Source: a virus (Duplodnaviria > Caudoviricetes). Taken from it: a stretch of 64,000 nucleotides of DNA. The translations under genes and the position numbers were made by a program. The notes under the pieces are model-generated. The model searched no databases. It saw only the letters and a list, made by a program, of their open reading frames with translations, and had not been told where the DNA came from. The stretch lies in the IMG/VR virus record IMGVR_UViG_3300011336_000387, positions 1,850 through 65,849 of that record. One strand, given 5' to 3'. Position 1 is the first letter of the stretch. Each line of letters begins with the position of its first letter. Positions 9,085 to 28,311 of this stretch are shown one piece after another.

Positions 9085-10407
9085 ATGTCAATTGGTAATC
9101 TCAAAGATACTGGAAACCAGGGGAATAATTTTCCATGGCAATATAAAATGTTATTGGGATTAGACTCAATTAACACTGCTGTTAATACAACTATTTCTCC
9201 AGCAGGTGTTATGGCAAGTGATGCTTTTGGAAGAGAACGTGATTCTGCTCCTTATACACTTGGAGACTATAAACACATTTATGGTTTAAATATAAATTTT
9301 CTTGATAAAGTTGCTAATGGTGGTACAGTTACTTTTAATGCTAACCAATCATCAGCTTTACTATCTACAACTTCAAATCCTGCAAGTAGTGCTATACATC
9401 AAACAAGAATGTATCATAACTATATTCCAGGAAAAAGTCAATTAATTTTTTCTACAATTTGCTATAAAGCAGCCGTTACTAATGTAACAAAAAGAACAGG
9501 ATACTTTGATGATAAAAATGGTATTTATTTTGAACAAACTGGAGATGGTGTATTATCACTTAATTTAAGAACAAGCACAAGTGGATCACCAGTAGAAACT
9601 AAAGTAATTCAAGCAAACTGGAATGTAGATAAATGTAATGGAACAGGTGCTTCTGGTTATAATTTAGATATAACTAAAACACAATTTTTATTTATAGACT
9701 TTACATGGTTAGGTTTAGGTAGAGTACGTTGTGGATTTTTAGTTAATGGAAAATATATTGTAGCAAATGAATTTCTAACCTCTAATACACTCACTGTTCC
9801 TTATATGGCTACTCCTAATTTACCAATTAGATGTGAAATATTTAATACAGGGGCAACAACAGGAGGATCTTTTAATCAAATATGTAGTACAGTAATAAGT
9901 GAAGGTGGAGATGCTGATGCAGGACAAGACTGGTCAACATTAAATTCTAGTTTAAGATCAATTGCTGCAGGAGCTACACTACCATTAATAGCAATTAGGT
10001 TAACAAATAACTTTCAAACTTATCTTAACAGAATGTTTATACGTTTACAAGACTTTAGTATATATTCAGTTAAAGAACCTCTTACATATAAAGTTATTAA
10101 ACTTCCAAATATTTCATATTTAACTGGAGCAACTTGGACAAGTGTACATACAAACTCAGGTGTTGAATTTAGTGTAGATGCTGTATCAAACACAAATGGA
10201 TATGTTTATGGATCTGGATTTGTTTCAGCTGCAGTAGGTAATAGGGGTGCAATAAGTATAGATCCTACATCAGCAAATGCTAGAGGAAATTATATTTCAC
10301 AAAATTATGATTCAACAGATTCAGAAATTTATATTATTTCAGTAACTAACATTGGAACAACAGCAACAACTGCTGGTGCATCAATGCAATGGAGAGAAGT
10401 ATATTAA
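9085..10407 (+). CDS. virion protein with ConA/LamG-like beta-sandwich
   Basis: DAFGR...HQTRMYHNYIPGKSQL...RTGYFDDKNGIYFEQ...DFTWLGLGRVRCGF...PNLPIRCEI, a pattern common in aquatic phage virion proteins. Confidence 0.65.
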   Translation: MSIGNLKDTGNQGNNFPWQYKMLLGLDSINTAVNTTISPAGVMASDAFGRERDSAPYTLGDYKHIYGLNINFLDKVANGGTVTFNANQSSALLSTTSNPASSAIHQTRMYHNYIPGKSQLIFSTICYKAAVTNVTKRTGYFDDKNGIYFEQTGDGVLSLNLRTSTSGSPVETKVIQANWNVDKCNGTGASGYNLDITKTQFLFIDFTWLGLGRVRCGFLVNGKYIVANEFLTSNTLTVPYMATPNLPIRCEIFNTGATTGGSFNQICSTVISEGGDADAGQDWSTLNSSLRSIAAGATLPLIAIRLTNNFQTYLNRMFIRLQDFSIYSVKEPLTYKVIKLPNISYLTGATWTSVHTNSGVEFSVDAVSNTNGYVYGSGFVSAAVGNRGAISIDPTSANARGNYISQNYDSTDSEIYIISVTNIGTTATTAGASMQWREVY

Positions 10408-10424: not shown

Positions 10425-10922
10425 ATGTCAATAGGAAATTTGCAAGATTACGGGAATAAAGGAAATAATTTTCCTTGGCAATTAAAAATGTTAAATGGTT
10501 TACAAAGTATTTATACTACATTAGTAAATATTTATAGTATTATAATATCATCACTTAATGTAAATATTATAGGCCCATTAGGACAACGAACTTGTAATGA
10601 TTCAGTTTCTACAACTTTGTGTACTAGTCAAGCTAATGTAATAATTACACCAGGTATAAATACAATTAATGGAAATAAACCTATGACCTATTATACTGGA
10701 GCAATTGCAAAATTATTAACATTATCAATTTATAATCAAGACACTACTGTTTCTATTTTAGTAAGTACAGATGGTGGTGTTACTTATGTTTCTGTTCCTA
10801 AAGGTGTAACAATTAATTATGATGCTGGAGGATTATTAAATTACTTTGAACCAACTGAGATATATATTAATTCAAATTCAGCTACAATAGATCCACTTAT
10901 TATTTATACATATACACTATAA
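10425..10922 (+). CDS. putative virion protein sharing its N-terminus with the 9085 gene
   Basis: MSIGNLQDYGNKGNNFPWQLKML versus MSIGNLKDTGNQGNNFPWQYKML. Confidence 0.6.
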   Translation: MSIGNLQDYGNKGNNFPWQLKMLNGLQSIYTTLVNIYSIIISSLNVNIIGPLGQRTCNDSVSTTLCTSQANVIITPGINTINGNKPMTYYTGAIAKLLTLSIYNQDTTVSILVSTDGGVTYVSVPKGVTINYDAGGLLNYFEPTEIYINSNSATIDPLIIYTYTL

Positions 10923-25230: not shown

Positions 25231-25522
25231 ATGAAAGCAAAAAAAATGCAATATGGTGGTGTTAAAAAAATGCAAAAAGGTGGTATTATTAAAACTAAAA
25301 AAAAATAAAATAAAAAAGGCAAGTAAAGGAGTAATTGTAAAATTGAATGGTAACACACCAGTTCAAAAAACTCCAGGTTCAAAAGGTGTTAAATCAGGTG
25401 TTAACCCAAAAGCTGCAGCATCAAAAGTTGCTAAAGGTAAAGTAGGTGGAACATCTTCTGCTCCAAAAACTGCAATACCTAAAGCTAAAATGGGCGGAAG
25501 CATGAAAGGTAAAAGCTGTTAA
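25231..25522 (+). CDS. small basic GG-motif protein, apparently split by a frameshift at an A9 tract
   Basis: 25231-25308 encodes MKAKKMQYGGVKKMQKGGIIKTKKK*. The +1 frame continues NKIKKASKG...AKMGGSMKGKSC to 25522. A9 lies at 25297-25305. Confidence 0.55.
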
Positions 25523-25524
25523 TA

Positions 25525-25863
25525 GTGCCTAAAGATGCCTGCTATAGTAAAGTAAAAGCACAGTATGCTGTGTTTCCTTCAGCAAGGGCTTCTCAAGCAA
25601 TTGCTAAATGTAGGAAAGGTTCTGGTGTAGTTAGAAAAACTAAAGCAGGTTCAAACCTTAAAAGATGGCAAGCAGAAAAATGGCAAGATACTAAATCAGG
25701 AAAAGCTTGTGGTGCCGGTGGTTCTAATGAATACTGCCGGCCTACAAAAAGAGTATCAAAGGATACTCCTAAAACAAAGTATGAATTAACTCCTTCTAAA
25801 TTAGCTGCTAAGAAAGCTGAAAAGTCTAGAGTAGGTATGGGAAGAAGAGTAAAAAAAGCATAG
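25525..25863 (+). CDS. small basic Cys-containing protein (DUF5872-like)
   Basis: LKRWQAEKWQD...KACG...YCRPTKRVSKDTPKT; start codon is GTG. Confidence 0.65.
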   Translation: MPKDACYSKVKAQYAVFPSARASQAIAKCRKGSGVVRKTKAGSNLKRWQAEKWQDTKSGKACGAGGSNEYCRPTKRVSKDTPKTKYELTPSKLAAKKAEKSRVGMGRRVKKA

Positions 25864-25865
25864 TT

Positions 25866-26138
25866 ATGGCAAAGACAGCAGCTTGGACAAGAAAAGAAGG
25901 TAAGAATAAAACCGGAGGTTTAAATGCAAAGGGAGTAGCCAGTTATAGAGCAGCTAATCCGGGATCTAAACTTAAGATGGCAGTCACTACTAAGCCATCT
26001 AAGTTAGATCCAAATGGCAAAGCAGCAAAGAGAAGGCGGAGCTTTTGTGCTAGAATGTCTGGGATGCCTGGACCTATGAAAGATGAAAAAGGCAGACCAA
26101 CAAGAAAAGCTCTTTCTTTAAGAAAATGGAATTGTTAA
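25866..26138 (+). CDS. small basic protein (DUF6321-like)
   Basis: AWTRKEGK...GGLNAKGVASYR..NPGSKLK...RRSFCARM...SLRKWNC; 24 of 90 residues are K or R. Confidence 0.75.
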   Translation: MAKTAAWTRKEGKNKTGGLNAKGVASYRAANPGSKLKMAVTTKPSKLDPNGKAAKRRRSFCARMSGMPGPMKDEKGRPTRKALSLRKWNC

Positions 26139-26153
26139 TTTAATATATACAAA

Positions 26154-26525
26154 ATGAAAACAAAATGCATGAGCTGTGGTGGTTCAATGAAGAAAATGGC
26201 TAAAGGTGGTATGCCAAGTAAAACTCCAATCTTAGGTCCTCCTAAAAAACCATTTGCTGCAGGTATACCTTACTTTATAGGTGCTGGACAAACAGGTCCA
26301 TCTTCTATGAAATCAGGAGGTTCAGTAAGCCGTGCAGTACAACCTTCTTGTAAAAGTGGTATGGTAAGAGGTGAAGATGGTAGATGTGTAAAAGCAAGAC
26401 CAATTCAGTTTGGTTCTGGAGGTTCTACTAAAAATGCTAAGTTAGCTGCATTAGCTGCGCCATATAATAAAATTACAAGAGCTGATATTATTACAGGTGC
26501 TAAAAAGAATGCTAAAAAGAAATAA
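26154..26525 (+). CDS. small basic GG-motif protein
   Basis: Contains MSCGG, MAKGG, MKSGG and FGSGG; Lys-rich. Confidence 0.65.
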   Translation: MKTKCMSCGGSMKKMAKGGMPSKTPILGPPKKPFAAGIPYFIGAGQTGPSSMKSGGSVSRAVQPSCKSGMVRGEDGRCVKARPIQFGSGGSTKNAKLAALAAPYNKITRADIITGAKKNAKKK

Positions 26526-26527
26526 TC

Positions 26528-26674
26528 ATGGCTGAGAAGAAGGATAAGAAATGGATACAAAAAGCAGTTAACCCTAAACATAAAGGTTTTTGTACTCCTC
26601 TTACTAAAAAAACTTGTACACCAAAAAGAAAAGCTCTTGCAATGACTTTTAAAAAAATGGCTAAAAATAAATAG
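26528..26674 (+). CDS. 48-aa basic peptide (not in ORF track)
   Basis: MAEKKDKKWIQKAVNPKHKGFCTPLTKKTCTPKRKALAMTFKKMAKNK; 16 of 48 residues are K or R; tightly packed between neighbours. Confidence 0.65.
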   Translation: MAEKKDKKWIQKAVNPKHKGFCTPLTKKTCTPKRKALAMTFKKMAKNK

Positions 26675-26677
26675 ATC

Positions 26678-26740
26678 ATGTTAAATAGTACTATTACTAT
26701 AAAGATAAAACAGAGAATCAATAAATTAGATAGATTATAA
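26678..26740 (+). pseudogene. orphaned original 5' end of the 27147 gene (20-codon mini-ORF)
   Basis: MLNSTITIKIKQRINKLDRL* versus MLNSTLVIKIKQRINKLDSN at 27147; 44 of 56 nt identical. The stop overlaps the endonuclease start (TAATG). Confidence 0.8.
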
Positions 26741-27153
26741 TGGGAAGAGATCTTGAAAATAAAAAGGAATACCAAAAAAAATACTATCTTAAAAATAAAG
26801 AGAGGCTCTTAGAGTATAGAAAAAATTTTTATAATGATAATAGAGAGGTAGCAATTGAAAGATCTAAGACTTGGGCTGAAAATAATAAAAGACAAAGAAA
26901 ACATAATGTATTAAAATCAACCTATAATATTACTATTGATGATTTTGAAAAAATGTTAGAAGATCAAGATTATAAATGTTATTGTTGTGCAGTTGAACAT
27001 AGTGAATTAAAAAATGGATTATATGTAGATCATTGTCATAATACAAATAAGGTTAGAGGTTTGCTTTGTTCAACATGTAACTTAGCTATAGGTTATGCAA
27101 AAGATAATATAAAAACATTACAAAACATGATAAAATATTTAGAAAAATGTTAA
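26740..27153 (+). mobile_element. free-standing homing endonuclease, endonuclease VII (His-Me) family
   Basis: YNITIDDFEKMLEDQDYKCYCC...VDHCHNTNKVRGLLCSTCNLAIG; flanked by duplicated starts of the host gene. Confidence 0.85.
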
Positions 27154-27845
27154 ATTCAACACTTGTAATAAAAATAAAACAGCGCATCAATAAATTGGAT
27201 AGCAATGACTATGACAATATAGAATGTTGGCAAATAGTAGAAGCATTTAATAAGGCTCAAGTAGAATGGTCAAGAAGACAACTGCATGGAATTAATATTC
27301 TTAAAGAAGGAGATGAACAATCTACTAGAAGAAAAGATGACTTACAAGTATTATTAAATTCTCAATCTTTAACTATTAATCCTAAAGAGTATTATTATAA
27401 GGCTTTACTTCCTGAAGATTATATGCAATGGAAAAGAGTTGATGTACTAGCAAAAAAAGATTGTTGTGAAAAAAGAAGAATGACAGTTTATTTTGCAGAA
27501 GAAGGAAATCTTAATCAGCTTTTAAGAGATAAATCTAAACAACCAAGTTTTGAGTGGGGAGAAACCTTTGCTACATTAATTAATAATAATGTACATATTT
27601 ACACAAATAAAGATTTTGAGGTACAAGATGCTAATATAGTTTATTACAGACAACCTGTAAAAATTCAAGTTCAAGGATGTGTTGACCCATATACAGGAGT
27701 AGCATCACCTACTAATATTCAATGTGAATTTAAAGATGATATAATTGAAGTTATAATAGATGAAGCAGTTGCTGTATTAGCTGGAGACATTGAATCAGGA
27801 AATCAATATGCAAGAGGCACAGAAAGTGCTGAAAGAAATAATTAA
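27147..27845 (+). CDS. crAss-like tail ring / head-tail connector protein
   Basis: 232 aa with FNKAQ, PSFEWGET and YYRQP motifs, in the conserved structural block. Confidence 0.55.
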   Translation: MLNSTLVIKIKQRINKLDSNDYDNIECWQIVEAFNKAQVEWSRRQLHGINILKEGDEQSTRRKDDLQVLLNSQSLTINPKEYYYKALLPEDYMQWKRVDVLAKKDCCEKRRMTVYFAEEGNLNQLLRDKSKQPSFEWGETFATLINNNVHIYTNKDFEVQDANIVYYRQPVKIQVQGCVDPYTGVASPTNIQCEFKDDIIEVIIDEAVAVLAGDIESGNQYARGTESAERNN

Positions 27846-27858
27846 AATTTAAAAAAAA

Positions 27859-28311
27859 ATGGAAAAACCTAGACTATTAAAAAGAGATGTTGCATCAACT
27901 GCATCATATTCAAGTGCACCTACAGGAGGATCTGTAGACACAATGACTGCAGCATGTGTATCAGAACTAATGAATGCTGGAACAAGTTTTCATAAGTTAC
28001 ATCTTAAAGTGACTGGTGCAGGATCATTTGCTGCTCATAAAGCTCTTAATGAGTTATATGATGCTTTACCTGGTCATGCTGATGACTTAGCAGAAGGATA
28101 CCAAGGAGCAGCTGAAATTTTACTTTCATATTCTGAAGTATCTGCAAGGAAATTAAATTCTGTTTCTGAGGGACTTGACTATATAAGAGAATTAATTGAT
28201 ATGGTGTCAAAGTTACAATCTAAAATGCCATATTCAGAAATAGTAAATGAACTTGATACCGTTAAGTCAACACTTAACTCTACTAAGTATAAGTTACTTT
28301 TTTTAAAATAA
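27859..28311 (+). CDS. Dps/ferritin-like protein (DUF5856-like)
   Basis: HKLHLKVTGAGSFAAHKALNELYDALPGHADDLAEGYQG matches the HxxHW...HxxLxExY...DxxAE ferritin-like pattern. Confidence 0.8.
   Translation: MEKPRLLKRDVASTASYSSAPTGGSVDTMTAACVSELMNAGTSFHKLHLKVTGAGSFAAHKALNELYDALPGHADDLAEGYQGAAEILLSYSEVSARKLNSVSEGLDYIRELIDMVSKLQSKMPYSEIVNELDTVKSTLNSTKYKLLFLK

Follow-up and report, generated by a model that had tools for sequence, protein, structure and literature searches.

How can a nuclease gene sit within the coding region of a phage structural gene, with neither an intron nor an intein, and leave that gene whole? We examined this question at a locus (Table 1) in the window, i.e. the entire stretch of 64,000 nucleotides analysed here; it stems from a freshwater crAss-like phage, has a GC content of 31% and is part of a 65.8-kb IMG/VR virus contig. 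Sequence comparisons make it very likely that the locus harbours a mobile homing-endonuclease cassette living in the 5' end of a tail ring-protein gene. The invaded gene stays whole because its start comes a second time, re-spelled, with the nuclease gene.

Table 1. Features at and around the ring-protein gene (positions in the window)
Feature	Position	Strand	Remarks
Major capsid protein gene	22484-24100		matches Pfam Crass_capsid
48-aa basic protein gene, upstream neighbour	26528..26674	+	from the open reading frame list; its stop lies 3 nt ahead of the stub ATG
5' end (codons 1-18) of the resident ring-protein gene, remaining as stub/leader	26678..26731	+	Ser4 = AGT
Stub open reading frame, 20 codons	26678-26740	+	the stop TAA and the nuclease ATG (26740) have one base in common (TAATG)
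Junction AGATTATA	26732..26739	+	closes the stub reading frame; stop TAA 26738-26740 overlaps the nuclease ATG
Putative EndoVII-motif HNH homing endonuclease gene, 137 aa	26740..27153	+	PF02945, phrog_2914
Cassette-borne re-spelled codons 1-18 of the ring-protein gene	27147..27200	+	Ser4 = TCA
Predicted tail ring/adaptor protein gene, complete, 232 aa (invaded gene)	27147..27845	+	phrog_29507, fold match
DUF5856/Dps-like protein gene	27859-28311		directly 3' of the ring gene; phrog_858; position conserved in most relatives

A sequence-only reading of this DNA had described a 56-nt imperfect repeat on both sides of the nuclease gene, and re-comparison bore it out in full. The copies at 26678-26733 and 27147-27202 are identical at 44/56 bases. 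Over codons 1-18, which translate to MLNSTITIKIKQRINKLD in the upstream copy and MLNSTLVIKIKQRINKLD in the downstream copy, 16/18 residues are the same; five codon differences are synonymous, as had been listed (AGT/TCA, ACT/ACA, AAG/AAA, AGA/CGC, TTA/TTG), and the remaining two differences are conservative replacements. The probability of at least 44/56 matches arising by chance is P = 1.8e-14 per pair, about 4e-5 being expected across the whole window, and the best repeat match in five codon-shuffled windows reached only 35-37/56. The overlaps between the reading frames were likewise found as claimed: TAATG joins the 20-codon leader (hereafter the stub) to the nuclease gene, and ATGTTAA joins the nuclease gene to the new start, the nuclease frame ending (27153) within this motif, i.e. 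within the ring-gene start at 27147. In the junction, the last two bases common to natural codon 19 are followed by foreign sequence. Elsewhere in the window, the starts of neighbouring 440-aa and 165-aa genes (9085-9177 and 10425-10517) match over 93 nt at 71% identity; these genes have an N-terminal module in common and no nuclease lies between them.

The invaded gene encodes what is, judged by its modelled fold, a tail ring/adaptor protein. The 232-aa protein belongs to phrog_29507 (virion structural protein), and a structure model built on 30 homologues (pLDDT 61, moderate confidence) matched the tail barrel of phicrAss001 (7qoj chains D/E/F; Foldseek E 2.5e-11 to 6e-10, TM 0.62-0.64) as well as head-to-tail adaptors of N4-, SU10- and DEV-type podophages. 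A sequence search of the protein against solved structures gave no meaningful match. With tblastn, an annotated 'ring protein' of a crAss-like phage (E 2e-6) and Cellulophaga phage structural proteins were retrieved. The tail ring/adaptor role suggests that the protein is essential.

The gene between the repeats had been called EndoVII, which agrees with the match of its 137-aa product to Pfam Endonuclease_7 (PF02945, E 1.3e-22; 79.9 bits vs a cut-off of 23.6) and to phrog_2914 (E 4e-29). Following the motif definition of DHHRN, or EndoVII-motif, homing endonucleases (PMC6083498), the complete set was detected in the window's nuclease: CX2-4C, DH(D)H, a conserved R, and CX2C followed by N. The corresponding catalytic and zinc residues (C80/C83, D97-H98-C99-H100, R106, C110/C113-N114) are all invariant in an alignment of five homologues. 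With a dN/dS of 0.07-0.29, the codon comparisons indicate that the intact nuclease gene is under purifying selection. As is general for homing endonuclease genes, it is patchily present at one fixed site and accompanied by evidence of horizontal transfer. It is not placed like the free-standing seg/mob-type genes of T4, which are ORFs between host genes: the insert lies at ring-gene codon 18/19, and a second nuclease lineage, described below, likewise lies within the coding region, at codon 11/12 of the ring gene.

What the locus looked like before the insertion can be read from relatives. At least 587 homologous ring-gene loci are present in IMG/VR, of which we read the best 80, plus loci reached through the nuclease search. 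About 75 of these best 80 have no nuclease adjoining the ring gene, and cassette carriers are rare (3 of the best 80). Endonuclease-free relatives had been proposed for comparison, and in them the gene starts where the upstream copy starts. In 24 nuclease-free loci, the ring-gene ATG follows within a few bases of the stop of the small basic gene's homologue, as in the window (26674/26678), from which it follows that the stub start is the original ring-gene start. Past codon 18, nuclease-free alleles continue GAT AGC/AGT AAT/CAA GAC. The upstream copy tracks them through GAT AG and then diverges, which places the break in codon 19, again as the sequence-only reading had it. A second copy of the ring-gene start was found in 0 of the approximately 75 nuclease-free loci among the best 80 (best upstream matches were 26-31 of 54, equal to the downstream control), i.e. 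the duplication does not occur there without the endonuclease.

The region between the capsid genes and the ring gene (25231-26674 in the window, and the matching region of L001-L080) is a hypervariable block of small Lys/Arg-rich proteins, in which the number and kind of ORFs differ among relatives. Other endonucleases were considered as candidates for the variable ORFs directly upstream of nuclease-free ring genes; ten representatives gave no Pfam match.

A nuclease flanked by two pieces of one gene might also reside in a self-splicing intron, or be part of an intein, with the stub as exon 1. Group I introns with HNH genes occur in many phage structural genes, and the protein would be unchanged if codon 18 of the stub were joined to codon 19 of the downstream copy. 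We nevertheless regard splicing as extremely improbable. A group I intron or any other RNA family at the insert was rejected, as nothing matched in Rfam at E<=1; only about 58 nt of the 469-nt insert fall outside the nuclease ORF, which could not accommodate a ribozyme core; and RNA folding gave a z-score of 0.04, by which a structured leader RNA was rejected too. Furthermore, the downstream codons 1-18 keep their protein sequence through many synonymous changes across 11 variants, which means that they are translated, and an intein is excluded because stops separate the frames. Insertion without splicing, as had been claimed from the window, is thus supported.

The nuclease search returned 5 IMG/VR and 11 metagenome contigs with proteins 77-93% identical. 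The ring-gene layout seen in the window is repeated in 15 further contigs with nucleases of this identity, and all 16 homologues that are at least 77% identical occupy the same site inside the ring gene. Every contig of this first lineage with available flanks has a stub of the first 18 codons (12 in L135), the ATGTTAA overlap and then a full ring gene, while the junction measures 8-14 nt and differs between nuclease lineages. No stub-less nuclease directly upstream of the ring gene, which would be the ancestral free-standing state, was seen among the 16 close homologues. In L135 (2457-2500), the first-lineage nuclease was kept and 6 stub codons were lost; its junction resembles an 18-21 nt deletion of the L085-type junction, with TAATG still at the end. 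The second nuclease lineage, represented by three contigs (L070/L071, L123), is 40% identical to the first. Its ORF opens with the first 11-12 codons of the ring gene, fused in frame, and a complete ring gene again comes after it.

A different EndoVII nuclease was observed in three contigs (L030:2588-3276, L054:1954-2803, L067:2517-3366), directly after a homologue of the window's 90-aa basic protein. These nuclease ORFs end in the last residues of that basic protein (L-R/E-K-W-N-C, stop), and in L030 the 21-nt end of the basic protein gene is present twice, at 18/21 identity and with synonymous changes. The window's counterpart of this gene (25866-26138) is without a nuclease. The arrangement looks like a 3'-end mirror of the ring-gene layout.

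Does the cassette move? In a tree of the ring-gene body (codons 21-232), 9 changes were counted for 11 nuclease-bearing rows, at least 7 of them forced by well-supported branches. Two comparisons delimit what is moved. L085 and L137, which come from different metagenomes, show 2 mismatches between stub codon 15 and nt 71 of the ring gene; this interval, with junction and nuclease in it, is a near-identical cassette of roughly 500 bp. Past nt 71, their ring genes are approximately 20-25% different (dS 1.35, i.e. saturation, vs 0.014 for the nuclease), and the DNA 5' of the stub is unrelated; such flanks have to be read with the caution that all relatives are metagenome assemblies, in which a shared 500-bp segment can yield mis-joined flanks. 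L081 and L123 share 97.5-100% identity for kilobases to either side, and their sole difference extends from stub codon 12 to ring-gene nt ~90, where two different nuclease lineages are present. From these comparisons, the mobile unit consists of the junction, the nuclease and the first 18 to ~30 ring-gene codons. The tract ends also indicate that the left crossover can lie within the 54-nt stub.

Alternatively, the insertion might be old and passed on vertically, with recombination between the 54-nt repeats removing it many times over and a nuclease that no longer homes. Direct repeats do allow a precise loss that leaves an intact gene, and the rarity of carriers would fit. So would the nuclease-free ring-gene starts of L076-L079 (4001-4060), which resemble cassette-linked ones (ACA ATA GTC ATA AAA; in L078, Ser4 = TCT) and may be footprints of cassette loss through recombination between the two repeats. 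We consider vertical inheritance very improbable, however. A near-identical cassette is found in phages whose ring genes are saturated at synonymous sites and whose upstream genes are unrelated; in almost every pair, dS of the nuclease is 2-3 times below that of the ring gene; and purifying selection acts on the nuclease. Cassette loss through the repeats probably does occur, and may account for free alleles such as those of L076-L079, in a cassette that is otherwise mobile.

The two gene starts of a carrier differ in their affinities. The stub of the window is up to 87.5% identical to nuclease-free alleles over 56 nt, whereas the downstream copy reaches at most 78.6%, and in 9/9 testable contigs the nearest nuclease-free relative is closer to the stub than to the downstream start. 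In L138, for example, the stub is 95% and the downstream start 69% identical to the nearest free relative, and this stub has a 100% match elsewhere among free alleles. Compared with the whole set of free alleles, stubs average 75% identity and downstream starts, which are outliers, 66%. The difference can be traced to individual codons, counted over unique cassette-linked starts and unique free alleles: Ser4 is TCN in 11/11 cassette-linked starts, 0/16 stubs and 1/49 free alleles (Fisher p 3.5e-11), Lys9 is AAA in 11/11 cassette-linked starts and 16/49 free alleles (p 3.8e-5), and Ile6 is ATA in 9/11 and 7/49, respectively (p 3.3e-5), although these p-values overstate independence because the rows are related. 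Stubs have AGY at codon 4 in 16/16 cases, as natural alleles do. As a switch from AGY to TCN takes two or three base changes, it points to a single origin of the re-spelled start, which has accompanied the cassette in either nuclease lineage. Between L085 and L137, and between L081 and L123, the downstream start indeed moves with the nuclease. The claim of a recoded replacement start can therefore be upheld.

Whether re-spelling confers immunity to cleavage is a separate matter. Self-protection of the cassette would probably stem from the interruption that the break makes in the stub and from the synonymous re-spelling of the downstream start. No consistent sequence difference between cassette-linked and free starts was seen at codons 16-19, so immunity may rest elsewhere or not exist. 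AAATTAGATAG, tried as an immunity motif at the break, was present in 0/10 cassette-linked starts and 10/51 free alleles (p ~0.1, not significant). Re-spelling would also reduce recombination between the repeats, which otherwise deletes the cassette.

We propose the following model. The cassette comprises a short junction, AT-rich and containing a stop codon, the EndoVII-type HNH gene and the re-spelled first 18 to ~30 codons. In mixed infection, the nuclease would cut nuclease-free alleles near codon 18/19, and the break would be repaired by copying the cassette from a co-infecting carrier genome. The conversion tracts bound the cut to codons 14-24 (L085/L137), and to near codon 12 for the second lineage, in segments that are conserved anyway. 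With the insertion at resident codon 18/19, codons 1-18 stay upstream as the stub and a full-length ring gene is rebuilt downstream. The stub would then act as the left arm, pairing with recipient codons 1 to ~14, and the gene body as the right arm. With such arms, both homologies lie in a conserved gene despite the hypervariable region upstream, in which an intergenic nuclease would in many cases find no left arm. We infer that the stub is the only left homology for the cassette.

The duplication itself may stem from one-sided, illegitimate repair. Experiments on intron homing in T4 have demonstrated such one-sided repair, in which junctions can form at microhomology, according to the account of Parker et al. 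1999 given in PMC2988022, and T4-like junctions of this kind could explain the origin of the ring-gene duplication. Under such an origin, the duplicated segment would be the interval from the nuclease's original position, just before the ATG, to the cut site.

Beyond pairing, the stub may contribute to expression. Ribosomes would enter at the resident start and stop at or just before the nuclease ATG; as the nuclease stop overlaps the new ring-gene ATG (ATGTTAA), the ring protein would be re-initiated, and nuclease and ring protein would be read in relay. That the nuclease is fed by the resident start is suggested by the conserved stop-start geometry together with the in-frame fusion of the second lineage. 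The stub could equally be the scar of a first one-sided illegitimate repair within a mobile cassette, with no role in translation and a nuclease that initiates alone. Illegitimate joins during one-sided homing are known from T4 (Parker et al. 1999, as reported in PMC2988022), stops are frequent in 31% GC DNA, L135 still keeps its nuclease without 6 stub codons, and no RNA structure links the stub and the nuclease start. On the other hand, the stub frame closes between a 1-nt overlap and 8 nt before the nuclease ATG in 12/12 distinct junctions, the L135 deletion included, the nuclease ORF of the second lineage continues the resident start in frame, and no stub contains a frameshift or an internal stop. 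The last point weighs less if the stub ORFs look intact only since each transfer renews them, which may be so. A mere scar thus seems possible, if on the unlikely side.

Tentatively, and short of calling it probable, we suggest that a natural 'home-and-rescue' drive operates here, in which the stub is functional, both as a left arm, which permits entry despite unrelated upstream genes, and as a site of ribosome entry, and that the nuclease lineages compete. The fused lineage could displace the first, whose 18-codon stub retains the target of the fused lineage, whereas the 11-codon stub of the fused lineage is without the rival's target.

Among described systems, the closest are the gene hybrids formed by mobile endonuclease ORFs (mORFs) of fungal mitochondria, known from atp6 of Allomyces macrogynus and from atp6, atp9, cox2 and nad3 of Glomus (PMC3630166). 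There, a foreign C-terminus is carried into atp6, atp9, cox2 or nad3 and the native C-terminus is left beside it (PMC3630166). In both systems, an endonuclease ORF lies inside a protein gene with no intron, and the gene remains complete thanks to a diverged second version of the end that was displaced. The native end lies beside the ORF and resembles close relatives, and the imported end is an outlier, as was found at the ring gene. However, the ring-gene case is a mirror image, with the 5' end (N-terminus) duplicated and the native piece upstream, whereas mORFs duplicate the C-terminus; its nuclease is EndoVII/HNH rather than GIY-YIG or LAGLIDADG; and the host is a phage instead of a mitochondrion. 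At the ring gene, the stub may feed translation of the nuclease. The free-standing homing endonucleases of T-even phages (seg, mob; intronless homing) also have a separate nuclease ORF with no intron or intein, and spread through break repair with co-conversion of flanking markers (PMC2988022). These T4 genes lie between genes and cut at a distance, while the ring-gene nuclease lies inside a coding region and restores the gene by its own copy; in what PMC2988022 relates of the T-even elements, no such duplication is described. Finally, F-CphI, a free-standing DHHRN enzyme found in phages, has the same motif set (CX2-4C, DHxH, R, CX2C-N) in its C-terminal half and an N-terminal extension, a likeness to the ring-gene nuclease drawn by motif only. 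Encoded between genes next to its target, the intron-less psbA site, it has no reported spare gene end (PMC6083498).

We found no description in the open-access literature of a phage in which an intragenic nuclease is combined with a spare gene start. New at the ring-gene locus are two nuclease lineages at one site, cassette boundaries obtained from natural near-isogenic pairs, and a stub as the sole left homology. Engineered cleave-and-rescue and home-and-rescue gene drives couple a nuclease with a copy of part of an essential gene, recoded to resist cleavage; they are synthetic, RNA-guided and used in animals, and parallel the ring-gene cassette in design only. In that sense, the cassette would be a natural counterpart of engineered rescue-type gene drives. 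For annotation, two warnings follow: i) short 'orphan' ORFs before HNH genes can be displaced gene starts, and ii) the first 20-30 codons of a host gene can differ in history from the remainder. The near-isogenic pairs are ready-made substrates for cleavage and homing assays. The layout of the cassette would explain how such an element spreads when one flank is hypervariable, and a spare, re-spelled gene end would constitute a third route, beside introns and inteins, into an essential phage gene at no cost.
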